This document shows positions 1,052-51,304 of a stretch of 64,000 nt of DNA, piece by piece. Made by a program: the position numbers and the translations under genes. Below the pieces are notes generated by a model. It was not told where the DNA came from. It ran no database searches and saw nothing but the letters and a program-made list of their open reading frames with translations. The first letter of the stretch is position 1. The number at the start of each line of letters is the position of its first letter. Origin of the DNA: an uncultured bacterium (GTDB taxonomy: Bacteria > Babelota > Babeliae > Babelales > Babelaceae); the NCBI GenBank assembly GCA_963699715.1, contig CAVOUX010000004.1, positions 174,346 to 238,345 of the forward strand, read 5' to 3'.

Positions 1052-1107
1052 ACTGTGAAATTACTCAATAAAAAATAAGATGAAAACGTTTTTTTTATAA
1101 CATTAAA

Positions 1108-1660
1108 ATTCTAGGCCTTCGCGGCCAGCGCCCGGGGACGGTTCATGCCACCATCCCCAAGACCTCCGCCGTCGTTAAAACTATGGCGGACTTCGCCCGG
1201 CACTGTTCCTCGCCTACCCTCCGAAGTTTTAACGTAGGAGAGGCCCCTATCTACCGCGCATATTCACGGATGTCGAAGCCCTGGGCTTCTCCACCTGCTC
1301 AAATGCGCTCAAGGGACTTTCTATTCAATAAAAAAAATAATAAATAATTCGAGGTAACTGATAAATCAAAGGAATCTGATGCGGCTCTTTTGTGTGAGGC
1401 AGGTCCCGAACATTCGTAAGAATGTGAAGACGCCGAGTCAGAGCCGAGGGTTCCAAGGGCTTGCCCTGGCATGTGGGGTTGCAAGGGGTGGGTCATGATA
1501 CCCGCCCGCTTGCCGCTGGCCGCGCAGGCCATTCGAAAAACACTGATTTATGGCAATTGCAGATAATTAGCCGAATTACAGGCAATGGGGTGGCCCGCTC
1601 TTGTCCGGCGAAACTGCCTTGTGAAAGCGGATGCCGCAGGCCGCGTAGGCCGAATAAGCA
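1108..1660. repeat. GC-rich (about 60% GC) non-coding element, copy A. It has imperfect terminal inverted repeats (aggccttcgcggccagcg ... cgcaggccgcgtaggccg). An inverted, diverged (about 85% in the core) copy sits at about 14450-14890.
   Basis: Direct comparison: 1270-1530 aligns to the reverse complement of 14540-14800 (e.g. gggtcatgatacccgcccgcttgccgctgg vs gggtcatgatacccgcccgctggtcgctgg). Base composition is sharply different from the surrounding AT-rich DNA. There is no credible ORF. Confidence 0.6.
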
Positions 1661-1790
1661 ACAACTGATCGCACAAGCCATTAAAACATCTTTTTATAAA
1701 CATTATTTTCATCAAAAGTTAAGCTGAAAGTCCTCGACTTTCATCACAAACCTTATATTCTAATGAGTCAGAAATAAAAAAGTGATGTAG

Positions 1791-3116
1791 ATGAAAGCGC
1801 GAATGATTTTTTGTATCATACTGTTTCTTTTGTTCTCTTTAGCAGCGTCCGCCCAAGAAAAAGATCAAGGCTTGCGCGGCAGAATTCCTGGTCTTGCTTT
1901 AAAAATAACACCCCAGGAAATTAAAGAATATGATCTGCTTCCGTATGGCTACGCACAGCTCAGTAATTCATATGACACGCGGCAGCTCTTTGGTGACAAT
2001 GAAGTCCTGGGAACCTTCTTCCCCAAACCGATCGTCCTCGATCCACGGGGACATGATATCAATGATCATCCTGAATTTCGAATGGTCGTAACGCAATCAA
2101 CCATAGGTCTGCTCGCACGCGGACCTAACTGGGATTCGGTAAAAACGTTTGCCACCCTCGAAACAGATTTTCTTGGTGAATCAATATCATCTATCGGCTG
2201 CATGCATGTGCGTCATCTTTTTTCATTTCTTGATTGGCAAAAAGGCTCCTTGTTGATGGGACAATACTGGCACCCCCTTGCACTCCCTCAGTGCTGGCCG
2301 GGAGTGGTTAACTTTAACGGTGGTGCACCTTTTGAAATATTTTCTCGCGATCCGCAAATACGTCTTACTCAGCGCTTCGATGGCATTGAGATAATGGCAT
2401 CCGTCGCAAGTCAATTTGATTTTACCAGTAACGGTCCATTTGGACCAACGCGGCTCTATATTGAAAGAGCCGTCATTCCAAATATAGACGCGCAGATACA
2501 TCTTATCGGTGACAGCTATTTTGGCGGCGTTGCATTTGATTATAAGCGATTAAAACCGCGTCTGGTAAGCAACAAACATTACAATGTGCATGAACACATT
2601 GACAGCTTTCTGGCCCAAGCATTTTTAAAACTTAACGTCACGGAATCATTGAGCTTACGAATGAAAGGTATTTGGGGACAAAATGCTAATGATCTTGGAC
2701 TTATTAGCGGATTTGGGGTAAAAACGGTCAATCCCATCACTGATGCAAGAACCTATGCAAACACCGCTGCTGCGTCTGGATGGTTTGACGTCACCTACTT
2801 TTTTGATAAAGAACAAAAGTATCAACTTGGCCTGTTTGTGGCATATGCAAAAAATCTTGGTTCTCAGCAAAAATTGTTTATCGATCCCAAGACAAAGCTT
2901 CCCATTATTTATGCATTAAGTGGCGTATCTCAAAATATTGATGATCTTTTTCGAATTTCTCCCCGGTATATTATCCAGCATAATCCGTTTTTAATTAGTT
3001 TTGAGCTTGAGTTTACACAAACGGCATGGGGGCATCCCAATGAGAGGGGAAAAGTTATCCATGCAAAAAATGCCAATAACGTGCGGCTCCTTGCTCAGAT
3101 AAACTATGTGTTTTGA
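1791..3116 (+). CDS. Outer-membrane beta-barrel protein (porin/major OMP-like), paralog 1
   Basis: 441 aa with signal peptide MKARMIFCIILFLLFSLAASA. The extreme C-terminus NYVF has a terminal Phe typical of OM beta-barrels. It is about 45% identical along its full length to the next gene. Confidence 0.65.
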   Translation: MKARMIFCIILFLLFSLAASAQEKDQGLRGRIPGLALKITPQEIKEYDLLPYGYAQLSNSYDTRQLFGDNEVLGTFFPKPIVLDPRGHDINDHPEFRMVVTQSTIGLLARGPNWDSVKTFATLETDFLGESISSIGCMHVRHLFSFLDWQKGSLLMGQYWHPLALPQCWPGVVNFNGGAPFEIFSRDPQIRLTQRFDGIEIMASVASQFDFTSNGPFGPTRLYIERAVIPNIDAQIHLIGDSYFGGVAFDYKRLKPRLVSNKHYNVHEHIDSFLAQAFLKLNVTESLSLRMKGIWGQNANDLGLISGFGVKTVNPITDARTYANTAAASGWFDVTYFFDKEQKYQLGLFVAYAKNLGSQQKLFIDPKTKLPIIYALSGVSQNIDDLFRISPRYIIQHNPFLISFELEFTQTAWGHPNERGKVIHAKNANNVRLLAQINYVF

Positions 3117-3126
3117 AAGTCAAAAA

Positions 3127-4440
3127 ATGAAAAGATACGCTATTTTATTTTGCTTGATACCAACGCTCATGCATGCGAGCATGGAGCACATGGTAACCGA
3201 TGGGTTGCGAGGACGTATCCCAGGCCTTTCATTAAAAGTAGAACCTCATGAATTAGATGAATACACCATTCGTCCTTATGGTGACGTCCAAATGGGCACC
3301 ATCTGGGACTCACGAGTCGTCTACGGCCAATCTGAGGAACTCGGCTCACTTTTTCCCGCCCCCATCATTATTGGGAAAAATGGAGAAGACATTAATACCC
3401 ATCCACACTTTCACATGTCAATTACCCCAACCACTTTTGGTCTTTTGATTCGCGGCCCGGACATAACCTCAGGATCAACATTTGGAGCAATCGAAACTGA
3501 TTTTAGAGGATCAGATCCTTCAGTAATAGGATGCCTTCACGTGAGGCATGCTTTTGGGATGGCAAGTTGGAAGGATGGCTATGTATTATTCGGTCAGTTT
3601 TGGCATCCTCTGGTTGTCCCACAATGTTGGCCCCATGTTATCAGTTTTAATGGCGGTGCACCTTTTGAAACTATTGCACGCGATCCTCAATTTCGCATGG
3701 TCAAACGGTTTGATAACCTAACTTGCATTCTGGCTATGGCAGGTCAGAGAGATTATGCGAGCAATGGACCATTGGGAAAATCACCGGAATACATCAGAGA
3801 TGCTGTTATACCTAATCTTCATGGGCAACTACGCTATTATGGAGAATCATATCTTTGTGGAGCAGCATTCGACTACAAAAGACTCAAACCACGGCTCGTG
3901 AGCGCCAAAAATTTTGATGTACATGAACATATTGATAGCTTCATTGCAGAAGCATATATGCGCGTCGATTTTGATCATTCAAATATTAGACTCAAAGGAA
4001 TATGGGCCCAAAATGCAAATGATCAAGGTCTTATAAGTGGCTTTGGCATAAAAACCATTAACCCCGTAACTCAGCAAGAAACCTATGCTAACACAGCAGC
4101 CGCTTCATTCTGGATTGATAGTTCATACTTTTTTACAGAGCATTTTAGGATTGGTCTTTTTGGAGCTTATGCAAAAAACCTGGGCTCATTCAAAAAGCTT
4201 TATATCGATCCAACAACAAAAGAACCGATCATTTACGCACTGCTTGGCGTGTCTCAAAACATTGATCAACTTTTTCGCATTTCTCCACGCGTGGTTTTTG
4301 AAAAACAACCATTTCTTATTGCTTTTGAACTTGAATATATCAATGCTTCATGGGGAAAGCCAAATGAATTTGGCAAGGTTGAGCGTGCTCGACCTGTAGG
4401 TAATGTTCGATTCGTAGCACAGATTAACTATGTGTTTTAA
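3127..4440 (+). CDS. Outer-membrane beta-barrel protein (porin/major OMP-like), paralog 2 (tandem duplicate)
   Basis: Start chosen at MKRYAILFCLIPTLMHAS (signal peptide), not at the overlapping ATG at 3106. The shared motifs are LRGRIPGL, GGAPFE, FDYKRLKPRLVS, LKGIWGQNANDQGLISGFG and a C-terminal NYVF. Confidence 0.65.
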   Translation: MKRYAILFCLIPTLMHASMEHMVTDGLRGRIPGLSLKVEPHELDEYTIRPYGDVQMGTIWDSRVVYGQSEELGSLFPAPIIIGKNGEDINTHPHFHMSITPTTFGLLIRGPDITSGSTFGAIETDFRGSDPSVIGCLHVRHAFGMASWKDGYVLFGQFWHPLVVPQCWPHVISFNGGAPFETIARDPQFRMVKRFDNLTCILAMAGQRDYASNGPLGKSPEYIRDAVIPNLHGQLRYYGESYLCGAAFDYKRLKPRLVSAKNFDVHEHIDSFIAEAYMRVDFDHSNIRLKGIWAQNANDQGLISGFGIKTINPVTQQETYANTAAASFWIDSSYFFTEHFRIGLFGAYAKNLGSFKKLYIDPTTKEPIIYALLGVSQNIDQLFRISPRVVFEKQPFLIAFELEYINASWGKPNEFGKVERARPVGNVRFVAQINYVF

Positions 4441-4708
4441 AGATTTACCAGCGTATAGGGATAATCTTACCTTGGAAAAATGTCAAAAACTCGAGATGAA
4501 GAGTTATTTTGCTCACACCACTGTTGCAAAACTTTTGTCCGGCAATTTTGAATTTATTTTTAATTTGTGTTATTTTAAGAAGAATTAAAACAAATTAATC
4601 TCAACTTTAGTCAGGGGCAGGGAAGTCAAGTCCCAATTTTTGTGTACTTTCAACTTCGTGATTTAAGACATGGAATGATTTCAATTTAGTTGAGTTGTTG
4701 CGCAGCTT

Positions 4709-5973
4709 TTTAAGCAAGCACCAACAGCACACCCGAAGGGTGTCATATCCTGTTTCATTTATGTGTCGGCATCGTCACCTCATACATGCATATCAATATA
4801 CTTTCTATTGCCCCAACTCTCTGATATTTCCTGACATATCGCGCTCGAGAGCCTCAGGCAACTATCCGCATTGGGGAAGATGCGCACCACCCGAGACCTT
4901 CTTTTCAATTCTTGATTAAGCCGCTCCAGCATATTGGTCGACTTCATTTTTTTGCGATGTTCAGGTGGCAATTCAACCACGGTCAATGTTTCCTCAACAT
5001 TCTCTTCAAGCCATTGCACTACCGATTCTTTTCTCTTGCTGAGTAAGAACGCATAGACTTTTTGTAGCCGAGCCATTGCATCCTCTTTCGTTTCAGCAGC
5101 AAACACGTCTTGCATAAGTCTTATGGTAAGTGGCTGATCAACCTTGGCAAGCTTGTCTATAAGGTTGCGCATGAAGTGTACCTGACACCGTTGTTGTTTC
5201 ACTTCCTGGAAGTACTTTCCCAGCGCCTTGCGGAGCCCCTTGTTATCATCAGTCACGACATACTCAACCCCAGTCAGACCTCTTTCTTTCAGTCCTTTAA
5301 AGCAATCATCCCAAGCCTCGTATGATTCACTGTTGACCACCCAACAACCTATCACTTCTCGTATCCCTTCATGCGTGATGCCAATCACCACCACAACTGC
5401 CTTACTGATAACAGAGCCATTCTCGCGTACTTTTTCATATCGCGCATCAATAACCAAGTATCGATATGATATGTTGAGTGGCCGCTCTCGCCATTCCTGC
5501 AGATCATGATCAAGCTGACATACCAGCCTACTGACCTGGCTTTTGGATATGGATGTCCCACTCAGCTCTTGCATGATATGATTCACTTTGCGGGTACTCA
5601 CACCCCTGAAGTACATCTCTGCTATCACAAGCATCAATGCTTTTTCGCTTCTTTGGTATCTGTCAAAGAGCTCAGGCTGGAACTCCCCTTCACGATCGCG
5701 GCACACTGCCAGTGTCAAGGCGCCCACCCGTGTGCTCAGCTGCCTTGTGTAGTGGCCGTTTCGGTATCCTTTTCTGGAATCTGTCCGCTCATATGCTTGA
5801 GCTCCTATAAACTTGTCAAAGTCGGCTTCAAGTACTTCCTGGCAGATCTTATTGATCATCTCGCGCATAAAATCATCCTGATTGATCAATGCTTCTTGCC
5901 ATCTCTTCGTTCTCTTGGTACCATCCATATTGGGCTTTCTTCCTTGGTGTTTGTGTTGTTGTTATTATCTTAA
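4709..5973 (-). mobile_element. IS256-family insertion sequence (about 1.26 kb) with imperfect ~30-bp terminal inverted repeats
   Basis: Left end ttaagcaagcaccaacagcacacccgaagg (4709-4739). Its reverse complement resembles the right end ccttggtgtttgtgttgttgttattatcttaa (5942-5973). It encloses a single transposase ORF. Confidence 0.7.
4780..5928 (-). CDS. IS256-family (Mutator-like) transposase
   Basis: 382 aa. Carries the IS256 signature region ...MYFRGVSTRKVNHIMQEL... and a DDE core. Single uninterrupted ORF. Confidence 0.9.
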   Translation of the reverse strand: MDGTKRTKRWQEALINQDDFMREMINKICQEVLEADFDKFIGAQAYERTDSRKGYRNGHYTRQLSTRVGALTLAVCRDREGEFQPELFDRYQRSEKALMLVIAEMYFRGVSTRKVNHIMQELSGTSISKSQVSRLVCQLDHDLQEWRERPLNISYRYLVIDARYEKVRENGSVISKAVVVVIGITHEGIREVIGCWVVNSESYEAWDDCFKGLKERGLTGVEYVVTDDNKGLRKALGKYFQEVKQQRCQVHFMRNLIDKLAKVDQPLTIRLMQDVFAAETKEDAMARLQKVYAFLLSKRKESVVQWLEENVEETLTVVELPPEHRKKMKSTNMLERLNQELKRRSRVVRIFPNADSCLRLSSAICQEISESWGNRKYIDMHV

Positions 5974-6055
5974 CACGAAGGTTGATGGCCCTCTTCTGCT
6001 TTTATGCTCGGGCCAATTTACACAATTTTATGGGCTTTATCGGGCAGGGACTTTT

Positions 6056-6298
6056 ATGACAGATTTTCTATCATCTCCATTTACAAAATTATTTCTTCTA
6101 ATTCTTATGAGCGCACTGAATTCGACTTTTTCTATAGTTAAAATTCCCAAAACGTTTATATCGCGCCAGACACCATTTTGTGTAATTGCAGCTACTACTC
6201 CCATTATGGCCATGACAGGTTTTCTAGTCATTCAGCTCTTTAACGAATATAAAAGACAAGAAAAAGCTATGGCAAAAAAGAGCGAAAGCATCCGGTGA
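6056..6298 (+). CDS. Small hydrophobic ORF (about 80 aa). Possible membrane protein, or a gene remnant caught between two IS elements.
   Basis: ATG at 6056. Two hydrophobic segments. Its stop TGA lies inside the 10-bp target duplication of the IS4-like element. Weak support. Confidence 0.25.
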   Translation: MTDFLSSPFTKLFLLILMSALNSTFSIVKIPKTFISRQTPFCVIAATTPIMAMTGFLVIQLFNEYKRQEKAMAKKSESIR

Positions 6299-6303
6299 AA
6301 TAT

Positions 6304-7456
6304 CTTAACACCTGACATTTTTTAAGAATATCCATAAAGCAGTAATAGAAGCGAATAACAAAACAGCATGAATCAATTTTCTGATTCCTGATTTAAAGAG
6401 AGAAGTTAGACTTCTAAGTTCTTTTTTTTTGAAGGCTGTATTTTATATTCGCGTGGTTGCATACCTGTTGAGACAGCCCAGAAACAAGCGATAGTCAATA
6501 CAAGTATCAAGCGCTCAATGCGATCAGCATGACGCAACTGTGTTTTGGTTATGCCAAAGCCTCGAGTTTTAAGATCTGAGAAGAGAGCTTCGATTCCCCA
6601 TCGAAGACTATAGTCCAACGCTTTTGCTGCAGATGGTACTGCATCCATAGCGATGATCCATGGTTCAGGATGACCATCTTCCTGAATAACACCAATATTA
6701 GTAACAACGTTTCCTGAATTAAGTTTAGCTTGAGTAAGGGAAGGAAGACCAAGCTTAAGAAGTTCTCCGGTAACAAGCTCACCACCCTTGTGATGAAGAA
6801 TAAGATTATTTTTTAATCGGATACGATATCCCCATTTTAAAGATTGGCAAAGAGCTATTAATGAAGCTGTTCCATAGAATCGATCAGCCATCAATATAAC
6901 ATTTAGTTTTAAAGGCAGCATTTTTGCAACTTCTTCAAGAAGTTGCTTTTGGATAGTGAATCCAATCTCTCCTTCAGTTTCAATAACACGCCATGCTACT
7001 GGCATTGCTCTTCCATTCATATGTAAGGAAACCATCAAGCATTCAAACCCATCGCTTATTTTACTTTGGTCAAGCATAAGCACAACTTTCTGACCCTGCG
7101 CACTCACCAACTCCATGATCTCTGGTATAAAACCATGCATGACTCTGATTGGATTGATATGCTTGTTGCTCAGCCATCTATTGATAAATCGATAACGCTC
7201 TTCATCGCTTTTTACTTCACGCGGCAATATATTTGCAAGTTCACTTGTGTTAATAGAACGTGTTACTATTACAGCAGCTGCTATATCTGCGAGTCCTGCC
7301 GCTTGTGGTTTGCTCAATCCTGTATCACGACCTTCTAAATCATCATTAATTATTTCCGATAGGTGTCTCACACCGCCATCTTTTCTTCTCACAACTCTCT
7401 CCTAAAAAGATTCTATCTCCTTTTAGAAGATCTCATATTTTTTGTCAGGTGTTAAG
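6304..7456 (-). mobile_element. IS4/IS5-like insertion sequence (1153 bp) with 14-bp perfect terminal IRs and a 10-bp target-site duplication
   Basis: Left IR cttaacacctgaca (6304-6317). Right IR tgtcaggtgttaag (7443-7456). The direct repeat ggtgaaatat immediately flanks both ends (6294-6303 and 7457-7466). Confidence 0.8.
6406..7392 (-). CDS. DDE transposase (IS4/IS5 superfamily)
   Basis: 328-aa single ORF inside the IR-bounded element. Its DDE_Tnp_1-like blocks are LMLDQSKISDGF, ILMADRFYG and WGIEALFSDLKTRGFGI. Confidence 0.75.
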   Translation of the reverse strand: MRRKDGGVRHLSEIINDDLEGRDTGLSKPQAAGLADIAAAVIVTRSINTSELANILPREVKSDEERYRFINRWLSNKHINPIRVMHGFIPEIMELVSAQGQKVVLMLDQSKISDGFECLMVSLHMNGRAMPVAWRVIETEGEIGFTIQKQLLEEVAKMLPLKLNVILMADRFYGTASLIALCQSLKWGYRIRLKNNLILHHKGGELVTGELLKLGLPSLTQAKLNSGNVVTNIGVIQEDGHPEPWIIAMDAVPSAAKALDYSLRWGIEALFSDLKTRGFGITKTQLRHADRIERLILVLTIACFWAVSTGMQPREYKIQPSKKKNLEV

Positions 7457-7532
7457 GGTGAAATATTGATTTTCTGGTAATTTTGGCTTTTTGGCGATAT
7501 ACTATATCGTAAAATTTTAACCAGCACAAATC

Positions 7533-8866
7533 ATGAAAAAAATTGGGATATGGGGCTTAGGGGTCGGTGGAACTTCGGTTATTCGATACTTTTTAGCTCA
7601 GGGATACAAGAATCTTGGTGTCTATGACAAACGTCCCCTGAACGAAAGCGAGCGCGCTTTTCTCGCTGCAAACGAGATCGCTCTTTTTGATATCAAAGAG
7701 CTTGATGAGTTCCTCTCTTCATATGACTTCATTATTCCGAGTGCCGGAATTGATTTGCGCCCTTATACTCATTATGAACATAAATGGATAAGTGAGGTTG
7801 ATCTCTTTGCGCAAGCACATAAAAATCCTCTTATTGCCATAACTGGTACTCTTGGAAAAACAACCGTCACCCATCTTTTATCACATCTGTTAAATTCTGC
7901 AGGGTTGTCTGTGGCATCAGGAGGTAATATCGGTATTGGTATGCTCGACTTAGCAGAAATGAAAACCGACTACACAGTCCTTGAGTTATCAAGCTTTCAA
8001 CTGGATATAACTAAAAAACTTGCCCCCGACCTTGCTGTTATTACCAATGTGTATCCAAATCATCTTGATAGACATGGAACCATGCAAGCGTACATTGATG
8101 CAAAATATGCGCTTATAAAGAATCAAAGTAAAAATCAAAAAGCCCTTATTCACGCGGATCTTTACCCGCTCATAAAAGCACGCAACCCTCGTGCGGAACT
8201 TCGTATCTTTTCTGAATCCAAGCCACATTTTGACAGTGAGCATTCTTACTACTTTGAGAATGATCACACCATCATCTTTGAACAGAGGGGCAACAAAAAA
8301 GAATACCCATCAACCTGCCAACAAATTCCTATCCACTTAATTGGCTCACCGTTATTGCTGCTCTTGATATACTTGAGCTCAACATTCCTGACCTGAAAAA
8401 CCTGCCGATTGAACTTCCCGCACATCGATTACACCATGTTGCATGCATCGAAGGGATTGATTTTTATGATGATTCAAAATCAACGGTACCTCAGGCCACC
8501 ATGGCTGCTGTAAGCAAACTGAGCACTCGTCCTGTCATAATTCTCATGGGCGGGATGGGCAAAGGCGTTAATCGAGAACCGTTGATTGAATCCCTTGCGA
8601 GCACCATAAAAAAAGCTCACTTTTTCGGTGCCGAAGCTGCTCAACTTCATGATTATGCCCATCGTTATAAACTTTCATCACAAATGCATCAAACACTTGA
8701 TGATGCATTCGCTGCTGCCATGAAGGACGCACAAACCAACGACCAAATACTTCTTTCGCCGGCTGGCGCAAGTTATGATCTTTATAAAAATTATCAAGAT
8801 CGCGGAAATGCCTTCATGCAACTTATTTTTGATTATCAAAAAAGAAAGTTGTCGACAAAATCTTGA
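7533..8866 (+). CDS. murD: UDP-N-acetylmuramoyl-L-alanine--D-glutamate ligase (MurD). The reading frame is broken by a 1-nt indel near 8325-8335.
   Basis: N-terminal part (7533-8396) has GIWGLGVGGTSVIRYF and IAITGTLGKTTVTHLL (Mur ligase P-loop). The continuation in another frame runs NWLTVIAALDIL...HRLHHVACIEGIDFYDDSKST...LLSPAGASYDLYKNYQDRGNAF. The shift maps to cacttaa(a)ttgg, an A-run. Confidence 0.85.
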
Positions 8867-8908
8867 CCTCGAGACGACAGCACGTTAAAGTTACGAGCAG
8901 CAAGTTTA

Positions 8909-10020
8909 ATGAGAGCAGTAATGAATCAAGCACCATCAAAAACACTTTTTGTTTTTTTAACTGTTATAGCCCTCCTTATAGTTATTGGGTTTGTTTTTAT
9001 CTATTCATCAAGTTCAATATTTGCCCTTGAACGGACGGGAATTCCTCACTATTTTGTTATTAAACAGTTCTTTGGCTTTATGGTAGGAATCATAGGATTA
9101 ATTCTTGGCAGAATGATCCCTTTGCAATGGATAAAAAAAGGTTCACCCTATTTCTTTATTGGAGCACTTTTATTGACGGCATTGACCTTTGTGCCACATA
9201 TTGGCGTTACCATTCATGGCTCGCGACGATGGATATCATTATTTGGATTTGCTTTTCAGCCCAGCGAACTTTTAAAAATCACGCTTATCTTGTATCTTGC
9301 CTATATCCTTGATAAAAAACAATATTCATTAAAATCATTTATATATGGCTATCTTCCCTTTTTGTGCATCCTTGGTGTATCCGCCCTTATATTTTTAAAA
9401 CAACCTGATTTTGGACAAACAGTCACTATTTGCATCATGGCATTACTACTCTTTTTTATCGCTCAAGTGAATCAAAAGCATCTTTTGGCAACGATTATAC
9501 CATTAATTCCGCTTACTGCATTACTTGTGTATCTTAAACCCTACCGATTTCGCAGAATTTTAATTTTTTTAAATCCATGGCGAGATCCACAAGGAGCAGG
9601 ATTTCAAATCATTCAATCATTAATTGCCATTGGCTCGGGAGGATTTTGGGGGTCGGCATTGGGAATTCTAAGCAAAAATTTTTTTATCTCCCTATGCAGC
9701 ACACAGACTTCATTTTTTCTATTATTGCTGAAGAAACGGGCTTTCTTGGTGTATTAGTACTCATCATGTTGTATTTGCTTTTTCTTTATAGCGGCCTCAA
9801 ATTGGCGGGAATTTTAAAAAATCCATTTTCCTCATATGTCATCTTAGGATTTGTGTTATTGACAAGTATCCAAGCATTAATAAATATGTGCGTTGCTACC
9901 AGTTTGCTTCCAACCAAAGGAATTGGATTGCCTTTTGTTAGTTACGGCAATTCAGCGCTCACTTGTGGGATGGCCATGATTGGCGTCATTATCAACTGTG
10001 TTACCTCTGAAAAAAATTAA
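8909..10020 (+). CDS. ftsW: Peptidoglycan glycosyltransferase FtsW (SEDS family). The frame is broken by a 1-nt deletion in a G5 run at about 9645.
   Basis: Ten predicted TM segments. The conserved motifs ...AIGSGGFWG and, in the +1 frame, VGIGNSKQKFFYLPMQHTDFIFSIIAEETGFLG are present. Inserting one G in ttttggggg restores a single about 370-aa ORF. Confidence 0.85.
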
Positions 10021-10125
10021 TCGACTTTTCATATGCATTTATTCTTGCGGAGAGACTGGTAATTTTGATTAAATTATTTTATGGTTGATAGCAGTTTGCA
10101 ACCCATACCTGAGAGGACGAAAAAC

Positions 10126-10704
10126 ATGAAAAGAATCTTAACCATTGGACTGAGCATAGCGTTACTCAGCCTAAAACTTACTGCTATGGAACTTGAAACG
10201 AGCCCTGAAGTGCAGAAGTTAACCCCCTTTGAAAAAGCTATAGTCGAAAACAGAGTGAATGCCGTAAAAGAGATGCTGGCAGAAGAATGGAATAACCCAG
10301 AATTGGTAACAATCCAAGCACGCACGTTTGCGATGGAAAGACCAGAAATTGAAAAACTCATTGCTGACTATGACGCTCTTAAGAAACCAACGAATACGGA
10401 GTTCGAATTCCAAGATGCCTTGACAACCCCAAGCGGAGGCTCACCTACACCAATTCCAAACCCGCAAGCGGACGATCGCTTAAAAGAAGAAGCAGAGGCA
10501 AAATTACCACTGACACCACAAAGCGGCAAAAAAGCCCCTCAACCACAGCAAAGAAGGAGTTTGGGAAAATGGATTGCCATCGGTGGTACCGGGATTGGAC
10601 TTGGTTATGTTGTTAAATATATTATTGATCGGTTTAAAACAAAAAAGACAATTCAGGCTAAACCGGCTAAAACGGGAAAACCTATTCGCAGTCCCTTAAC
10701 ATAG
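10126..10704 (+). CDS. Hypothetical secreted / tail-anchored membrane protein
   Basis: Signal peptide MKRILTIGLSIALLSLKLTA. Pro/Gln-rich low-complexity middle region. C-terminal TM helix WIAIGGTGIGLGYVVKYII. A rho-independent terminator follows at about 10716-10748. Confidence 0.5.
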   Translation: MKRILTIGLSIALLSLKLTAMELETSPEVQKLTPFEKAIVENRVNAVKEMLAEEWNNPELVTIQARTFAMERPEIEKLIADYDALKKPTNTEFEFQDALTTPSGGSPTPIPNPQADDRLKEEAEAKLPLTPQSGKKAPQPQQRRSLGKWIAIGGTGIGLGYVVKYIIDRFKTKKTIQAKPAKTGKPIRSPLT

Positions 10705-10715
10705 AACATGAGGCA

Positions 10716-10748
10716 AGAGTCAGCGTTTTAGCACTGACTCTTTTTTTA
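10716..10748 (+). terminator. Rho-independent terminator
   Basis: Stem agagtcagcg/cactgactct around a tttta loop, followed by T7. Confidence 0.6.
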
Positions 10749-10766
10749 TAAAAAGGAGAGAAAGCT

Positions 10767-11021
10767 ATGAAAAAACCAGTAAAAAAAGCCATAATTTTTT
10801 TAGGCATTTTCTTGAGCACACAGATTCCAGCTATGCAATTCCCCCCCAGACAACCAATAGCTTTGACCGAAGCTGATAAAAAATTACTATTAAGCTTGGG
10901 CTATAAAAATCAGACCTTCATTTCGATAGCTCAAAATGGTCTGACTGCACAAGATATACTTTTCTTGGAATCCCTCAGGCAAACGGCTAAACAACAGATT
11001 ATTGTTTCCAATTCACAATAA
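10767..11021 (+). CDS. Small secreted hypothetical protein (84 aa)
   Basis: RBS aaggagag lies 8 nt upstream. Signal peptide MKKPVKKAIIFLGIFLSTQIPA. Confidence 0.45.
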   Translation: MKKPVKKAIIFLGIFLSTQIPAMQFPPRQPIALTEADKKLLLSLGYKNQTFISIAQNGLTAQDILFLESLRQTAKQQIIVSNSQ

Positions 11022-12519
11022 GATCGGCAAACAATCTGACTCCAAAGCCACTTGAACCGGGTCTGTAATAACTAATATCAGGAACATTGAATGCTGTTCC
11101 TGCAATATCGAGATGGGCCCAAGGCACATCGCCAACAAAGCTTTTTAGGAAAAACGCGGCGGTAATGGTCCCCCCTTTATACCGTATTGTACCTATATTA
11201 GAAAGATCCGCGACGTCACTTCGAATAGCAGGCTTGTAGTCGTCATGAAGTGGTAATCGCCACGTTCTATCGCCAGATCTCTGGCCAGACTTAATAATAT
11301 GCTTACTCAAGTCATCGTGCTTGCTTAAAAGTCCACAAAAAAAGTGGCCCAGGGCTGCTGCACAAGCGCCAGTTAATGTTGCGATATCGATAATAGCATC
11401 AAGTTTATAATGCTTTACTGCATAAGAAAGAGCATCCGCAAGCACAAGCCGTCCTTCAGCATCAGTATCTTTTACTTCAGCAGTTACCCCATTATAAAAT
11501 TGAATAATGTCACCAGGACGAGTCGCCGTGCCACTGGGCATATTTTCTGCCAACGGTGCAAGTCCAACAACGTTAATTTTAGGTTTTAAATGAGCAAGCA
11601 ATTCGATCGTTGAGATTACCACCGCCGCGCCAGCCATATCATCTTTCATGGTCTCCATAGAGGCAGCTGGCTTAATGCAAAGGCCACCCGTATCAAAGGT
11701 AATACCTTTGCCCACAAGAGCAATCGTCGGTGCATTTGGATGATCTGTTTTATATTCCATAACAACAAGACGCGGTTCCTCGGCCGACCCTTTGCCCACA
11801 GCATAAATTCCACCCATACCCATATCCAAAATTTCTTTCTTGCCAAAGACTTTACAAGAAAGATCATGCGTTTTAGCAATTTTTTCTGCCCTTTCGGCCA
11901 TTACCTTGGGAGAAATCATATTACCAGGAAGGTCAGTCCAATGCCGAGCCTGGTTGACAGCGTAGCCAATATGAGTGCCCTGTTCTATCCCAACTTTATA
12001 TTCTTGAGCAACATCATCAGAAATACAAAGTGTTATGGTATAATTTTGGGGGTATTTGCGGGACTCATCGGTAATGTATTTATCAAAATGATACGTTGCT
12101 ATCTCAGCAATGGAAGCTATCTCTGATCCAAGAGTAAAAGCTGAGACATCAAACTTTTCATGGTGGGGAAATGTTAATGCCACCTCCGCTATTCCTAATG
12201 ATTCAGCTGAACGCATCAGAGACCCGACTGCCCGCCGAAACCGCTCAATTTTTTCTTCTAGGGGCAAACCAGCTAGTTTCCCGAGTCCATAAAACATTAG
12301 GTAGACATTCTTTCCTTTGTTGTCACCAGACACGACAAGTTGTGCTCCTGAAGCTCCTTTAAATTTTCTTTCTTCTATACTACTTTTTAACGGCTTGTAG
12401 AAGGTTTCAAGCGCCATCGCAACGGGATTAGAAAGCACGGCATCCTGTTCGCATAAAACACCATAGCCTTGTGCTTTATTTTCATGGAGTTGCTTATTAC
12501 TTAATGTTATGGTGATCAT
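10999..12519 (-). CDS. pepA: Leucyl aminopeptidase (M17 family)
   Basis: 506 aa. Carries the M17 signature NTDAEGRL (VKDTDAEGRLVLADAL) and the metal-ligand blocks VGKGITFDTGG and DMAGAA. Confidence 0.9.
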   Translation of the reverse strand: MITITLSNKQLHENKAQGYGVLCEQDAVLSNPVAMALETFYKPLKSSIEERKFKGASGAQLVVSGDNKGKNVYLMFYGLGKLAGLPLEEKIERFRRAVGSLMRSAESLGIAEVALTFPHHEKFDVSAFTLGSEIASIAEIATYHFDKYITDESRKYPQNYTITLCISDDVAQEYKVGIEQGTHIGYAVNQARHWTDLPGNMISPKVMAERAEKIAKTHDLSCKVFGKKEILDMGMGGIYAVGKGSAEEPRLVVMEYKTDHPNAPTIALVGKGITFDTGGLCIKPAASMETMKDDMAGAAVVISTIELLAHLKPKINVVGLAPLAENMPSGTATRPGDIIQFYNGVTAEVKDTDAEGRLVLADALSYAVKHYKLDAIIDIATLTGACAAALGHFFCGLLSKHDDLSKHIIKSGQRSGDRTWRLPLHDDYKPAIRSDVADLSNIGTIRYKGGTITAAFFLKSFVGDVPWAHLDIAGTAFNVPDISYYRPGSSGFGVRLFADLIVNWKQ

Positions 12520-12786
12520 AATGCCTCTTAATATGTTCTTTTTCTGATAGCAATAGGATACACCATTTTTTTACAATCAGCGACGCCCAGACTCATGGAC
12601 CATAACCCCCCTCTGCCCCCCCATTTTATCATCCGACCATAATGCCAAAAAAATTAAAAAGTGCTTTAATCAAGCCCTTTTTTCAAATCCATGAAATTAA
12701 TTATAAAAATTATTTTAAAAAGTATTGCAATCAGAAAATTTATTTTACTATACTGAGGTTAGATAGAAAAAGATTGGAGAAAGCGA

Positions 12787-12951
12787 ATGAGGCAAAAAAA
12801 AGATAAATCTTCAGAAACTACATCAAAGAAGGCTAAGTTGTGCCACTTTTGCCAAGGTCGCGAAGGCAAGGGAGTTCGGAGTCTAAAGAAAAAAGCCGAC
12901 AAAGTCCATCACGGTCATTATTGTGGCCGTAAATGGTTCCCCTGCCACTAA
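12787..12951 (+). CDS. Small basic Cys/His-rich protein (54 aa), putative zinc-ribbon
   Basis: RBS ggag 7 nt upstream of ATG. CHFCQG ... HHGHYCGRKWFPCH. Followed by a perfect 14-bp stem hairpin. Confidence 0.4.
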   Translation: MRQKKDKSSETTSKKAKLCHFCQGREGKGVRSLKKKADKVHHGHYCGRKWFPCH

Positions 12952-12957
12952 CAAACT

Positions 12958-13005
12958 TGACTGCTTCTACGTATCCCCCCTGCTCATTCCTTCAACGTAG
13001 AAGCA
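12958..13005 (+). terminator. Hairpin (14-bp perfect stem gactgcttctacgt / acgtagaagcagtc, 24-nt loop) downstream of the small Cys/His-rich ORF
   Basis: Inverted repeat read directly from the sequence. The U-tract is weak (cattctt). Confidence 0.4.
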
Positions 13006-13126
13006 GTCATTCTTATACTACCCCCCCCATCATATATAAAGACTCTTATTTGAAATTCCCAAACTCTCTGCACATCCCCCTTTTTTACCCTTTTTATCTC
13101 ATGGGTTGATTAAACGTATACGTGGT

Positions 13127-13186
13127 TATTAAAGAATTCTTTAACAAGCCTTCAAATTATGCTATCTTATTAAAGAATACTTTAAT
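13127..13186 (+). promoter_or_regulatory. Two 16-bp palindromic operator-like sites upstream of fic, 41 bp apart centre to centre
   Basis: TTAAAGAATTCTTTAA at 13130-13145 is a perfect palindrome. TTAAAGAATACTTTAA at 13171-13186 has one mismatch. Confidence 0.5.
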
Positions 13187-13238
13187 AGCAATGATAATAG
13201 GGTCATTTAATTCAAGAAACCTTTAATAGGACACTTTT

Positions 13239-14390
13239 ATGAGCAGAAGCGGCACGTACATAAAGCAATTAGCGGGTTATAAAGCTTTTATACCAACAGA
13301 TTTGCCTTCTTATGCCAATCTTCAAATAGATTTGGTATTGACTCAAAAACTTGCCAAAGCCTCACTTTTAATAGCCCGCCTTGATGGTCTTGCCTATACC
13401 CTACCCAATACCGACTTATTTATTAGTATGTACGTAAAAAAAGAAGCACTCTTAAGCTCACAAATTGAGGGAACTCAGGCATCCCTCGAGGACATTTTTG
13501 AATTTGAAAGCGGTATTTCTGTTAACAACATTGGTGATGTTGAAGAAGTTGTTAACTATGTCAAAGCATTAAACTTTGGAATTCAAAGATTGAAGCAAAT
13601 TCCCATGAGCGTACGTTTGATTCGTGAACTTCATGCGATTCTTTTGCGTGATACACGAGGGCAGGAAAAAACTCCCGGCGAATTCAAACGATCCCAAAAT
13701 TGGATTGGTGCTTCCAATTCAACCATTGCAAGCGCGTTGTTTGTACCACCACCTGCCGATATTTCACTTGATGCAATGACTTCATTAGAAAAATATATGC
13801 ATGATGACCAGGAAACTCCCGATCTCATTAAATGCGCCCTTATACATTACCAATTTGAAACGATACATCCATTTCTCGATGGCAATGGAAGAGTTGGCCG
13901 ATTGTTAATAACACTTTATCTTTATTGGAAAGGAATTGTTGAAAAACCGTTGCTTTACTTGAGTTACTTCTTTAAAAAAAACCGCCAAGAATATTACGAC
14001 CGTCTTATGATGGTCAGAAACTCTGGCAATTATGAGCAATGGATATCCTTTTTTCTCGATGGCGTTATTCAAACTTCTGAATCCGCTATTGATAACACAA
14101 AGAAAATTCTCGAATTACATAACGAACACCAAGAATTATTGTGGCAGCAAAAAATCTCATCTCCTTTTGCGGTTATGTTACTTAATAGACTTTATTACAC
14201 ACCAATTCTTACCATATCTGATATACAAACCATGTTTGACGTCAGTTACCCAACAGCATCGCATTTGGTTAAGGACTTTGTAAGGGTCGGTATTCTTAAA
14301 GAGGTAACGGGGAAAAAGAGGGCAAAGCGATATAATTATGTTGATTATCTTTCTATTCTTTCTGAGGGCACTTCACCGTTCTTGGAGTAA
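13239..14390 (+). CDS. Fic-family AMPylase, class II architecture: N-terminal inhibitory (S/T)xxxE(G/N) helix plus C-terminal winged-helix-like domain
   Basis: Fic motif HPFLDGNGRVGRLL. The N-terminal SSQIEGTQASL contains the inhibitory SxxxEG motif. About 380 aa, as in SoFic-like proteins. Confidence 0.9.
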   Translation: MSRSGTYIKQLAGYKAFIPTDLPSYANLQIDLVLTQKLAKASLLIARLDGLAYTLPNTDLFISMYVKKEALLSSQIEGTQASLEDIFEFESGISVNNIGDVEEVVNYVKALNFGIQRLKQIPMSVRLIRELHAILLRDTRGQEKTPGEFKRSQNWIGASNSTIASALFVPPPADISLDAMTSLEKYMHDDQETPDLIKCALIHYQFETIHPFLDGNGRVGRLLITLYLYWKGIVEKPLLYLSYFFKKNRQEYYDRLMMVRNSGNYEQWISFFLDGVIQTSESAIDNTKKILELHNEHQELLWQQKISSPFAVMLLNRLYYTPILTISDIQTMFDVSYPTASHLVKDFVRVGILKEVTGKKRAKRYNYVDYLSILSEGTSPFLE

Positions 14391-14449
14391 AAACATTATA
14401 ATTTAATTGCGTTTTCAAGCCCCAAGTGAGGTTTTCTAAAATAATGCTT

Positions 14450-14890
14450 AATGGCCTATGCGGCCGGCGTCCAATACTTCCAAGTCAGTCACTCTTTCAG
14501 AAAAAATGAATTGCAGTTTTTTTTTATGGACAACGCGTCCAGCGACCAGCGGGCGGGTATCATGACCCCCCCTGGCAACCCCGCATGCCAGGGCAAGCCC
14601 TTGGAACCCTACGGATCAAACTCGGCATCTTCGCATTCTTCGAATGCTCGGGATTGCCTCACACAGGCGATCCTCAACAGACTCGTTTGATTTATCAGTA
14701 ACCTCAAACGATTTCATTATCTTTTTTATAAATAGAAAATCCCTTGAGCGTCATTGAGCAGGTGGAGAAGCCCAGAGCTTCGACATCCGTGAATTGACGC
14801 GGCAATTGGGGGCCGAGGAACCGCGGTGCCGGTGGTCCAGGGGGTGACGGCACGAGTCGCCGCCTGGCGCTGGACGCGCAGTCCGTAATG
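14450..14890. repeat. GC-rich non-coding element, copy B (inverted, diverged copy of 1108-1660)
   Basis: See copy A. It has internal inverted segments gcgtccagcgaccagcg ... cgcctggcgctggacgcgcag. The ORF 14451-14690 is considered spurious. Confidence 0.6.
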
Positions 14891-14953
14891 AAAAACTACA
14901 AAAAATTATTCCATTTCAAAAACCCATTTATACAAATCATCGCTTTTTATAAA

Positions 14954-20538: not shown

Positions 20539-21852
20539 TTATTGATTTTTCGTGTCAAAATAATTTTGAATCAGATTTTTGGTAGCCCCTTTGGCAACCG
20601 CAAGCGCATCATTTCCCGCATTATTCTTTATGGTTGGGTCAATGCTATCAATCTCAGCAAATTGCTCGGCACTGTAGGTATAACAAATCGATCCTTTTAG
20701 TTGTGCAGGATCAAAAAGCCTTGGTGCTTGCTGCACATGATATTGACCTTGCACCTCCAAGAGATAGCTAACAACCTCATCATTACCAGCTTGGGCTGCA
20801 AGGATAAGAGGAGTGTTTCCTTCGCTATCTTTGGTATTCACTGAAACTCCCTGATTTACAAGCTGTTCAACAGCCTTTTTTCCGTTCTTAAAAGTTGCCG
20901 CTTGCAAAATCTCACTCGACAAATCGGGTACTTTTGCCCCAGCACTCAAGAGAAGTTGAACCATCACATTTGAGCATGCATGATTTTTTCCCGATAATTC
21001 AGCGTTTTGGGCGAGAGCTAAAGCCGTTTTTCCTGTTTTCTCAGGAATATCAAGATTAATACTTTGTTCTTTAACAAGGCTTGGAATAACACCTATATTG
21101 TTCGTTTTTATTGCTTTTATGAGAGGAGTATCACCATCACGATCTTGAGTATTAACATTTGGGTGTTTTGCCATTATTTTTTCACCAAGACCATTCCATT
21201 CCCATGATTGTCCCGAAACAGCAAGATGCAATGGTGTCTCAGCATTATTATTGGGTATGTCAATTGATGAATTATCATGGTCAAGAAGCAACGATGCTGC
21301 ATTCGCCCACTTGACCAGATCGGTCACTTTATCCCCATCATTAATTTTTTTTAACAATATCATCAGTGCGGTATTGCCATTAGCATCCAGAGCTGTCGTG
21401 TTGACATTATATTTAGTTGCAAGCATCATTCTAAAAATTTTAAAGGGCTCACTACTCTGGGCAGCTTTAACGAGCGGAGGATTTCCATCCTTGTCAACGG
21501 CATTACTATCTGCGCCAGCCTCTAAAAGAACGGGGATGATAGCTAATGACGGATTACCACCAATACCATTCAAAGCGACATTGAGTGTTGTATTTCCCTC
21601 CGCATCTTTACTCATGACATCAGCACCAGCTTTCAACGCCGCGATCAGTTGAGCTTTATCATTGCTTTTAATTGCAGCAAAAAGGACATCATTGGCAGCA
21701 GCAGGAGACGGCAATGCCGCCCCTTTTACCGGCGATTGTTGTGATTGCACTGGCTTTGACATTATCGTAGGCACATTAGTCAGGTTAGTGATAACTTGCG
21801 AATGCAACGAGCTTATGGAAAGACAGAGCACAGAAAATCTTGATAGTCTCAT
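20539..21852 (-). CDS. Ankyrin-repeat protein with signal peptide
   Basis: At least 8 ANK-like repeats (e.g. DKDGNPPLVKAAQ, DRDGDTPLIKAIK, DSEGNTPLILAAQAGN). N-terminal hydrophobic leader. Confidence 0.8.
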   Translation of the reverse strand: MRLSRFSVLCLSISSLHSQVITNLTNVPTIMSKPVQSQQSPVKGAALPSPAAANDVLFAAIKSNDKAQLIAALKAGADVMSKDAEGNTTLNVALNGIGGNPSLAIIPVLLEAGADSNAVDKDGNPPLVKAAQSSEPFKIFRMMLATKYNVNTTALDANGNTALMILLKKINDGDKVTDLVKWANAASLLLDHDNSSIDIPNNNAETPLHLAVSGQSWEWNGLGEKIMAKHPNVNTQDRDGDTPLIKAIKTNNIGVIPSLVKEQSINLDIPEKTGKTALALAQNAELSGKNHACSNVMVQLLLSAGAKVPDLSSEILQAATFKNGKKAVEQLVNQGVSVNTKDSEGNTPLILAAQAGNDEVVSYLLEVQGQYHVQQAPRLFDPAQLKGSICYTYSAEQFAEIDSIDPTIKNNAGNDALAVAKGATKNLIQNYFDTKNQ

Positions 21853-21957
21853 GGCGTATATTCCTATTTCTGCTTATACAGCTAGAATACCAGATCTTTA
21901 ATCCAATTTGCAATGCAAACAAAGCTCATCTTCCGAATAAAGATAAATAAAGCATAT

Positions 21958-40840: not shown

Positions 40841-40917
40841 TGGTGCGCCCGACAGGAATTGAACCTGTGACCTACAGATTAGGAATCTGTCGCTCTATCC
40901 GACTGAGCTACGGGCGC
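40841..40917 (-). tRNA. tRNA-Arg (anticodon CCT), with encoded CCA
   Basis: Reverse complement is gcgcccgtagctcagtcggatagagcgacagattCCTaatctgtaggtcacaggttcaattcctgtcgggcgcacca. Has a 7-bp acceptor stem, the D-loop AGTCGGATAG, the anticodon stem acaga/tctgt with loop ttCCTaa, and the T-arm GGTTCAATTCC. Confidence 0.9.
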
Positions 40918-46316: not shown

Positions 46317-46419
46317 AAAAAAATCCTTTTGTTTTAAAAAACAAGATCAACTCTACCAAATGTGGGTTAAAATGCAAGCACAATTTTGCAAATAGAATCT
46401 TTAATTCTTCTGAATTTTT

Positions 46420-50753: not shown

Positions 50754-50790
50754 GAAGGACCATTTAGGTTTTAAAGAAAGCACATAAACT

Positions 50791-51276: not shown

Positions 51277-51304
51277 ATACCTTTTTATTCGTCCCTTCAT
51301 GACT

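Follow-up and report, generated by a model that had tools for sequence, protein, structure and literature searches.

The window analysed here (the whole stretch of 64,000 nucleotides, measured at 39.9% GC where about 38% had been stated for the genome) harbors exactly two copies of a non-coding element of 440–550 bp. Element A occupies positions 1113–1651 on the plus strand and element B positions 14445–14886 with its sense strand on the minus strand, as delineated by alignment, inverted-repeat search, and blastn. Between them lies a 13-kb segment holding two OMP paralogs, two IS elements, murD, ftsW, pepA, and fic, a gene content that the original prediction had listed correctly, save that murD and ftsW are each split. 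A and B proved to be a genuine, diverged inverted pair of about 80% identity at the predicted positions, and the 30-mers quoted as examples of their likeness are present in the sequence. The mean column identity was 79% when 1090–1680 (plus strand) was aligned with 14430–14910 (minus strand) by MAFFT; the repeat search returned inverted arms of 160, 55, and 45 nt at 80–93% identity, and blastn 83% over 306 nt plus 68% over 78 nt. The longest exact stretch common to both copies is 27 nt. Similarity had been claimed for the whole length, which holds up to ~1535 in A and ~14515 in B; beyond, only a short distal hairpin (GGCCGCRTAGGCC) is shared. Likewise, the proposed GC content of about 60% applies to the arms (60–62%), whereas the entire element has 54% and its AT-rich center 16%. 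A low-complexity GC artefact was not borne out, as the A/B bit score is 289 compared with a maximum of 23 in shuffled sequences (n = 100). L001, a contig from an independent Logan assembly, matches the window at 100% identity across the 574 nt under comparison and breaks off at ~1272, within element A.

Each element is a foldback, that is, an imperfect palindrome whose left arm approximates the reverse complement of its right arm; in A, the left arm is followed by the AT-rich center, the right arm with a conserved module, and a 3′ extension. A self-inverted blastn match of B (−300 to 108 against 108 to −300) places the symmetry center ~96 nt upstream of the core described below, and the equivalent point of A (~1352) falls within the AT-rich center (1322–1370, no strand assigned). 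The terminal inverted repeats of the original prediction were readily recovered from the sequence. In A, the left repeat (AGGCCTTCGCGGCCAGCG; 1113–1130, plus strand) is the reverse complement of a hairpin motif termed T and pairs with 1514–1530, with a further counterpart at 1639–1651; in B, the left repeat (GGACTGCGCGTCCAGCG; 14868–14884, minus strand) corresponds to 14528–14544 and 14453–14465. The helix formed by the terminal repeats (helix 1) comprises 15 pairs, with two compensatory changes between A and B. Alignment gaps further delimit a nested palindromic insert of ~67 nt in A (CGTTAAAACT...AAGTTTTAACG; 1175–1241, plus strand), which lacks a counterpart in B and is predicted by minimum-free-energy folding to form local hairpins.

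The right arm carries a module of ~100–170 nt. In all copies, it consists of a GGRUUCC motif, a hairpin with a bulged A (H1), a 4-bp pseudoknot that joins the bases just 3′ of H1 to the loop of a second hairpin (H2), and the third hairpin, T, whose loop is GCGUA-like; upstream lies a stem-loop with a GUGAGG box. On the plus strand of A, the inner right arm (1371–1447) contains helices 10–12, with four compensatory changes relative to B, and begins with GGAAUCU (1371–1377), which is able to pair with GGGUUCC. A stem (1383–1388/1440–1445) encloses the GUGAGG box (1394–1399), and a CGAUAG/CUAUCG stem with the same box sits at the equivalent place in two related copies (L004 and L005). The core—GGGTTCC plus H1 (CCA-A-GGG CUUG CCC-UGG)—spans 1448–1469, followed by the pseudoknot and H2 (1470–1513; CAUG at 1470–1473 with the loop CAUG at 1494–1497, H2 stem 1481–1493/1500–1513) and the T hairpin (UGGCC-GCGCA-GGCCA; 1514–1530), which doubles as the right partner of the left terminal repeat. 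The 3′ extension (1531–1651) is made up of an A-run, a spacer, and a second, distal T-like hairpin (GGCCGCGTAGGCC; 1639–1651), a layout repeated in B and in the copies L006, L008, and L010. On the minus strand of B, the core (GGGTTCC plus H1) lies at 14588–14609, the pseudoknot and H2 at 14545–14587 (14584–14587 with 14561–14564; H2 14545–14576), the T hairpin (UGGAC-GCGUU-GUCCA), here too the right partner of the terminal repeat, at 14528–14544, and the distal T-like hairpin (GGCCGCATAGGCC) at 14453–14465.

To count base pairs across ten modules, we annotated the pairs by hand and tallied them by script, because MAFFT misaligned H2 in the alignment of all modules. In this partly hand-aligned sample, representing about nine distinct modules from about five lineages, 204 of 204 pairs were standard (198 Watson–Crick, six G-U, no A-C, and none of any other kind). 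The pseudoknot occurs in seven different sequences, each of which pairs in all four positions with its own partner, while none of the 42 foreign combinations pairs fully. A and B differ at 31 paired positions among 96 predicted pairs, and pairing survives at every one of them (13 double and five single changes), as counted on an RNAalifold structure derived from those same two sequences; controls with partners slid by one to three columns gave zero to one double changes. A descriptor of the module, run over 217 kb, returned 14 matches (nine distinct sequences) and missed only the L004 type, as opposed to about one match in each locally shuffled replica. The core, H1 included, is identical in every right-arm copy, an invariance that is partly an ascertainment effect because exact core matches were the means of retrieving related copies. 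Left-arm copies carry diverged cores, and the 22-nt core is kept between copies that are otherwise unalignable. Intrastrand base pairing is thus under strong purifying selection, and the suggestion of a structured RNA gained support from compensatory changes, including those in the pseudoknot, within a structure conserved across lineages. As for the strand, the 6:0 ratio of G-U to A-C favors the sense strand of the module, and the folding energies of the whole element show no strand difference.

Scans for the exact core recovered relatives solely from MAGs of TM6 (Dependentiae) and from TM6-like metagenome contigs. Further copies, for which a genome-wide count had been proposed, therefore exist in other Dependentiae genomes, and the foldback repeat is, so far as seen, specific to this phylum. 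The organism that the window comes from is itself Dependentiae-like. The exact core was present in only two of the species-representative genomes scanned, and at two loci in the TM6 MAG GW2011_GWF2_37_49. Related copies elsewhere are solitary and have long inverted arms as well as second modules in inverted orientation. They reside at unrelated loci, adjoining trpS, mutL, prfB, lepA, or MNT/HEPN genes; at six of seven loci the gene upstream reads in the direction of the module, and none of the copies is flanked by a divergent gene pair. Since the neighboring genes differ at every locus, we rejected a cis-regulatory leader or riboswitch. Three further leads were discarded: an 18-mer of the core in a viral contig (L014) is a chance match to GC-rich coding DNA, a metagenome match (L009) is likewise due to chance, and the OMP-like gene beside one related copy (L003) is not homologous to the OMPs of the window, removing any link to these genes.

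We also searched for coding potential, known RNAs, and transcription signals. That neither element holds a convincing ORF was confirmed: ORFs of 54–88 aa are possible in the GC-rich arms, and the antisense ORFs of A and B (77 and 79 aa) differ by frameshifts, for which reason a protein-coding reading was rejected. A six-frame profile across the core, compared with 5.8 billion proteins, gave 8000 word candidates and none at E ≤ 10. The proposed check against Rfam revealed no known RNA in the elements, be it a group II intron domain, tmRNA, RNase P, HEARO, or a ribozyme. At gathering thresholds, the sole match of Rfam 15 in the window was a tRNA-Arg (40844–40917), and relaxed searches of A (E ≤ 10) and of six related loci (E ≤ 1) gave only chance matches of snoRNA type; ARAGORN found no tRNA or tmRNA in A or B, and distant-mode blastn no match in plasmids or phages. 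A likeness to U6 snRNA noticed by eye comes down to short common words (AGGAUGACAC, AUUCGU..AAG, and GUUCCA), and the Rfam U6 model does not match. Promoter and terminator scans yielded no more sites than shuffled sequences did, with no terminator downstream of the module. An intrinsic terminator was dismissed because, on the module strand, the hairpins are followed by an A-run and, on the opposite strand, a T-run comes before them. Directly before A, a sequence resembling a promoter (ATGAAA-18-TAAAAT) extends to 1109.

Is the element mobile? The closest relatives available (L018, L019, and L020), though distant at ~63% amino-acid identity, share the HAD...OMP1-OMP2 and OMP-murD-ftsW synteny and have neither the element nor a GC-rich island, so that orthologous sites are polymorphic for its presence. 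The idea of a non-autonomous mobile element thereby receives real support, from this patchiness together with the terminal inverted repeats and the further copies. TA occurs near both ends of A and B at offsets that disagree, and the termini are not fixed to the base; no clean target-site duplication was found at the ends of either copy. Nor did the IS256-, IS4/5-, and IS630-type elements of the window include a cognate autonomous element: a link to them was rejected because their termini, which are AT-rich, are unrelated to those of A and B. Among the ORFs of the window that we scanned, none was identified as a Y1 transposase (RAYT included), TnpB, or IscB. At ~80% identity and low copy number—two copies in 64 kb and no near-identical paralogue—A and B are old, unlike active MITEs. 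Relative to L018, element A sits at a synteny change: between HAD and OMP1, A and a His_Phos gene stand in place of three small genes.

Taken together, A and B probably represent an old, diverged, low-copy non-coding foldback repeat of MITE- or REPIN-like type, hitherto undescribed, whose structured module is selected as RNA or as single-stranded DNA. The mobile-element and structured-RNA options raised originally are each partly supported and compatible with each other. We propose that the element spread long ago, by transposition or duplication, and that its module may act as a folded single strand, most probably an RNA read through from the upstream gene; its role could be that of a stable structure or a processing element at the 3′ end or, alternatively, that of a protein-binding platform.

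Like bacterial MITEs and foldback repeats—Rickettsia palindromic elements, Neisseria Correia elements, enterobacterial ERIC/IRU, pneumococcal BOX, and Coxiella QMITEs—the elements are short (below ~600 bp, without a coding gene), intergenic, bounded by terminal inverted repeats, and foldable as a whole into a long hairpin; they are also dispersed at unrelated loci downstream of genes, patchy between relatives, and subject to nested insertion. Unlike those MITEs, however, they are few, old, and diverged rather than present as several near-identical dispersed copies, and neither a target duplication nor a parent IS was identified. Moreover, an internal 22-nt hairpin is most conserved instead of the tips, the pseudoknot covaries although DNA-level transposon ends need none, and strongly GC-rich arms stand out from an AT-rich genome. 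With the RAYT-mobilized REPINs/BIMEs, they share the inverted doublet of a structured unit, compensatory upkeep of hairpins, intergenic placement, and persistence in the host. Yet the unit is 100–170 nt with three hairpins and a pseudoknot, compared with 20–40 nt for a REP, lacks a GTAG-type head, and occurs in one to three copies rather than tens to hundreds. GC richness, multiple hairpins, a pseudoknot, and several diverged copies per genome recall the HEARO/IscB omega RNA, the TnpB omega RNA, and the IS110 bridge RNA; the differences are that our elements match nothing in Rfam, adjoin no effector or recombinase gene, and are foldbacks with terminal inverted repeats. Finally, the large GC-rich orphan ncRNAs that GC screens of intergenic DNA uncovered in AT-rich genomes (Breaker-laboratory motifs such as OLE, GOLLD, ROOL, and raiA) similarly form structured GC-rich islands in AT-rich intergenic regions with covariation-supported helices, but A and B have no sequence or structure match in Rfam 15 and are palindromic, repeated, and non-syntenic.

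Several other explanations were weighed. Chance similarity of GC-rich or low-complexity DNA, a small protein gene, or an assembly artefact can be regarded as already refuted: drawable ORFs are the one point that speaks for it, set against the bit score far above shuffles, the frameshifts, the empty protein profile, the identical sequence in the independent Logan assembly, and homologues in other genomes. That A and B are substrates of homologous or site-specific recombination, inverting the 13 kb as a switch or rearrangement hot spot, is suggested by their inverted placement around the segment and by the synteny change at A. Still, this idea found no positive support and appears very unlikely, given that at ~80% identity the longest exact match is 27 nt and that no invertase, integrase, or recombinase is encoded in or beside the segment. 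GC skew keeps its direction from one flank across the segment to the other, the related copies at other loci occur singly, and the order and orientation HAD(+)...OMP1(+)-OMP2 and OMP-murD-ftsW are those of the element-free closest relatives. From the short exact match, the missing recombinase, the steady skew, and the gene order of the relatives, the bracketing of the 13 kb looks incidental.

A further explanation is mobilization of single-stranded DNA by an HUH/Y1 enzyme (an IS200/IS605 TnpA or a RAYT), as for PATEs and REPINs, with H1 as the recognition hairpin and the covarying 4 nt as the contact between guide and cleavage site. H1, itself an imperfect hairpin, has an extrahelical base beside this 4-nt pairing, the inverted doublet is REPIN-like, and compensatory change between REPIN arms is a trait that Bertels and Rainey reportedly described in 2011. 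We nonetheless consider this route improbable: the 4 nt pair with a hairpin loop instead of a flanking cleavage site, IS200/IS605 ends are not inverted repeats, and the absence of candidate enzymes among the scanned ORFs, units of at least 100 nt, and copy numbers of one to three all fit it poorly. The right-arm module might instead be a free-standing gene for a new class of structured ncRNA (~170 nt, built around the hairpin-pseudoknot core), transcribed from a promoter of its own and active in trans; the foldback would then have arisen by inverted duplication, and the copies would be paralogous, not mobile. A DNA end recognized by a protein would need no covariation in local hairpins and a pseudoknot; the core persists between unalignable copies, the G-U bias lies on one strand, pairing is retained in few and long-diverged copies, and the promoter-like site precedes A. 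Conversely, synteny is not conserved and the closest relatives have no element at the orthologous loci, no terminator follows the module, promoters do not exceed shuffles, inverted second modules and terminal inverted repeats are present, and only two of the scanned species-representative genomes contain the exact core. On balance, such a gene seems possible but doubtful. With similar reserve, we suggest that the module might constitute a new functional class of structured RNA specific to Dependentiae—a candidate ribozyme, protein-scaffolding RNA, or guide RNA—through which the foldback element would promote or regulate its own spread.

Dependentiae, intracellular parasites of protists, form a widespread phylum with hardly any cultured members, and their non-coding repertoire is, to our knowledge, essentially unexplored. 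In the foldback repeat that we favor, hairpins and pseudoknot are preserved by compensatory change across lineages, whereas genomic position is not. If the module works as RNA, it would add to the structured RNAs a new class associated with a mobile or repeat element; if it works as DNA, the repeat would be an unusual foldback MITE, very old and low in copy number, whose ends depend on structure. Should the RNA drive its own spread, it would be an RNA-centered mobile element unlike known MITE, REPIN, or omega-RNA systems. In practice, the elements mark synteny changes in their host genomes and fragment short-read assemblies, three of which (L001, L004, and L007) end within a copy.

The two elements bracketing the 13-kb segment are real, and they are homologous. 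They had been predicted as inverted copies at 1108–1660 (+) and 14450–14890 (−), and their shared part does align: element A (about 1113–1651, + strand) and element B (about 14445–14886, − strand) matched by blastn over 306 nt at 83% and a further 78 nt at 68%, with a bit score of 289 as compared to at most 23 in 100 shuffles of B, and a repeat search returned inverted arms of 160, 55, and 45 nt with 80–93% complementarity. An independent Logan contig overlapping A (L001) was 100% identical across the 574 nt compared and terminated within A; the element is therefore no assembly artefact, and assemblers treat it as a repeat. The window contains exactly two copies. A GC content of about 60% applies to the arms of A (60–62%, with a centre of 16%), but not to the whole elements, each of which has 54% (window: 39.9%). 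The proposed terminal inverted repeats were recovered in the sequences of both A and B, as was the lack of a convincing ORF: the GC-rich DNA of the elements does accommodate ORFs, but the two longest antisense ones are frameshifted between A and B. The only other window stretches of at least 120 nt with at least 56% GC lie in coding genes (32121–32240 in a Band_7/SPFH gene; 5641–5800 in an IS256-type transposase gene).

To find relatives, we scanned each large collection once for exact matches to the stretch in which A and B are best conserved. Among genomes, the scan yielded three matches, every one in metagenome-assembled genomes of candidate division TM6 (Dependentiae), and the metagenome scan yielded nine, eight of which had the same architecture. 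The ninth (L009), within GC-rich coding DNA, was rejected as a chance match, as was a viral match (L014). De-duplication left about nine distinct modules—the module being the conserved unit of the right arm—from about five lineages.

The layout of the module was read from the sequences and then checked by script, with the sense strand being + for A and − for B. Only a stretch of about 46–86 nt is alignable between subfamilies by blastn; the layout is nonetheless common to all. It comprises a stem enclosing a GUGAGG box (GGCUCU/AGAGCC in A, GGAUCG/UGAUCC in B, CGAUAG/CUAUCG in the related contig L004), GGRUUCC on the 3′ side of this stem-loop, and a hairpin, H1, with a bulged A (CCA-A-GGG CUUG CCC-UGG; in diverged copies CCAAAG-UGCU-CUUUGG or CCAGG-CGCAG-CUUGG). 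The four bases after H1 pair with loop bases 1–4 of a second hairpin, H2, to form an H-type pseudoknot, and H2 itself has 8–13 bp and a different sequence in each lineage. A short linker (CGCUGG or an A-run) leads to hairpin T, which starts 67–70 nt downstream of the core's start (GGGTTCC plus H1; 1448–1469 in A) and has a GCGUA-like loop as well as covarying stems (GGCC/GGCC, GGAC/GUCC, GGAG/CUCC, GCCU/AGGC).

The structural signal is well supported. When A and B were compared with RNAalifold—the structure being derived from the same two sequences that were used for pair counting—96 pairs were predicted and pairing was retained at 31 of 31 differing paired positions, through 13 double-sided changes and five single-sided ones via G-U. 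With the partners slid by 1–3 columns as a control, 37–47% of cells paired and double changes fell to 0–1. Across ten modules, the 204 annotated pairs comprised 198 Watson-Crick and six G-U pairs, with no A-C and no other mismatch. Seven different pseudoknot sequences (CAUG, UGCU, CACC, UGCG, UGCA, CGCU, and UACG) were each 4/4 complementary to their own loop partner in the register set by the end of H1, and none of the 42 foreign combinations reached 4/4; an eighth type (L004) forms three Watson-Crick pairs and gains one G-U when the final base of H1 is included. A rule-based descriptor scan of 217 kb returned 14 module matches (nine distinct sequences), missing the L004 type alone, and gave about one match in each locally shuffled replica.

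Covariation in a pseudoknot and in local hairpins is unexpected for a DNA end bound by protein as a duplex, so the state under selection is a single strand folded on itself, be it RNA or single-stranded DNA. The 6:0 ratio of G-U to A-C, a small sample annotated on that strand, favours the sense strand of the module, and changes in the GGAAUYY segment, which lies opposite the invariant GGGUUCC, are Y/R-only and likewise point to it. Folding energies of the whole elements did not separate the strands.

In all-against-all blastn, each element proved to be an imperfect palindrome (self reverse-complement match of 436 nt at 59% in B and 580 nt at 60% in L002). Three related copies (L006, L008, and L010) harbor on the left a second complete module, inverted, with tails outward and with H1, pseudoknot, and H2 each intact; the left arm of A and B is a decayed inverted copy. 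At its tip, this arm carries the reverse complement of hairpin T, which accounts for the terminal inverted repeats. About 60–110 nt past the first T hairpin, both elements have another, distal T-like one (A 1639–1651, B 14453–14465; also in L004).

Small palindromic inserts are nested in A (1175–1241; absent from B), L002 (about 65 nt), and L010 (about 190 nt). The insert of A and those at about 1735–1810 in L003 and about 2290–2355 in L002 are GC-rich; the motif CGTTAAAACTAYGGCGGAC is common to the A-specific insert and the L003 copy, and the L002 insert has CCGTTCGTCCTGAGCTTGTCGAAGGA...GGTTCGACAGGCTCACCACGAGC. They resemble a distinct family of very small hairpin repeats that invade the larger element. 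In addition, L004 and L005, which represent one locus in two different samples, differ by a 20-nt indel (AGCGAGCGGTCGGAGCGAG) in the interval from the GUGAGG stem-loop to the core. The longer form also occurs in L002 and L007, which are paralogous copies, hinting at gene conversion between copies.

Comparison with known RNAs, as suggested in the original prediction, matched no family: with Rfam 15 at gathering thresholds, the sole match in the whole window was a tRNA-Arg, and loosening the cutoff to E ≤ 10 for A and to E ≤ 1 for six related loci brought in chance matches only. ARAGORN found no tmRNA, 72,556 plasmids and 50,697 phage records contained nothing similar to the element, and full-text literature searches turned up no account of elements of this type in Dependentiae. 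Within Rfam 15 and the searched literature, the element is undescribed, and it is best classed with the bacterial repeats of foldback or MITE-like type, as a new form of these.

Several features favour mobility, namely the terminal inverted repeats, the unrelated loci, and the assemblies interrupted inside copies. The distribution is also patchy: the gene order HAD(+)...OMP1(+)-OMP2 is common to the window and two relatives (L018 and L019), and OMP...murD-ftsW to the window and a third (L020), yet the element is absent from these orthologous loci, and about 100 kb of the relatives' DNA contained no GC-rich island. The HAD-OMP1 interval holds three small genes in L018, as opposed to a His_Phos gene and A in the window. 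That His_Phos gene (350–1051) has been relocated, placing A where synteny changes; in relatives (L015 10001–10717, L017 2053–2772), it overlaps a convergent glmM-like gene, close to dacA and trpS. Against recent mobility stand the low copy number and a divergence of about 20%; moreover, we found no clean target duplication, no IS with termini matching the element, and no Y1/HUH, TnpB, IscB, or RT genes among the window ORFs scanned. A cis-regulatory leader was ruled out because neighbouring genes are unlike at every locus (trpS, mutL, prfB, lepA/gyrA, or MNT-HEPN toxin-antitoxin pairs elsewhere; His_Phos/OMP and FtsX-permease/fic in the window). MNT nucleotidyltransferase and HEPN pairs adjoin both L004-type copies (L004 202–908 and L007 1255–1952, relative to the core), and fic (13239–14390) adjoins B, suggesting that the elements are located in variable, island-like regions.

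On balance, we favour, with moderate confidence, an old, low-copy MITE-/REPIN-like foldback repeat whose arms encode a structured module under selection in its folded, single-stranded form, most probably RNA from upstream-gene read-through; there is a fair, though minor, chance that the module represents a new functional RNA class. The results above establish that the copies are homologous, share one architecture, are selected for pairing, are patchily distributed, and belong to no known family; we infer that the module would be transcribed, on its sense strand, by read-through of the upstream gene, and that the element probably spread by transposition or duplication. The module's role might be that of a stable structure or a processing signal at a 3′ end, or it might provide a platform for protein binding, with the invariant GGGUUCC-H1 as the likely contact site. 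Its placement fits the favoured reading: at six of seven loci, module and upstream gene point in the same direction, a sample too small for significance, and within this same small set no copy lies between divergent genes.

The 13-kb segment contains the predicted genes, namely two OMP paralogues (DcaP-like, 56% identical), an IS256-type and an IS4/5-type transposase, murD, ftsW, pepA, and fic. Its proposed inversion gained no support. The longest exact match between A and B is 27 nt, the segment encodes no recombinase, GC skew keeps its sign across the segment and its flanks, and HAD, the OMPs, murD, and ftsW have the same order and orientation as in relatives without the elements. A far better inversion substrate, owing to its near-identity, is a pair of inverted 1136-bp IS630-family elements (DDE_3 transposase plus HTH; 21941–23076 and 60088–61223; 99% identical), which have 34-nt terminal inverted repeats and enclose 37 kb including dnaA (37360–38745, −).

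Between OMP2 and murD lie the IS256-type (Transposase_mut) gene (4780–5928, −) and the IS4/5-type DDE element (6304–7456), the latter with perfect 14-nt inverted repeats (6304–6317/7443–7456); in L020, this position is occupied by ankyrin genes and a toxin-antitoxin pair of the HigA/Gp49 type. Three window genes are each split in two ORFs: murD (7533–8396 and 8501–8866), ftsW (8909–9757 and 9577–10020), and mutS (53381–54865 and 54932–55489). Either the genome is decaying and these are pseudogenes, or the assembly contains indel errors; L020 has intact orthologues of both murD (438 aa) and ftsW (386 aa).

The window organism looks Dependentiae-like, the closest named homologue of its porin-like OMP being from "Candidatus Dependentiae bacterium", and the window encodes many ankyrin and RING proteins. 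The organism also occurs in ERR10755948. Genes for ankyrin-repeat proteins and a 1945-aa ORF are found at 20539–21852, 24945–30782, 44151–47553, 49881–52279, and 57609–59357, with one ankyrin-repeat protein (44151–46316) bearing a RING finger. Effector repertoires of this eukaryote-like kind are typical of intracellular bacteria associated with amoebae.
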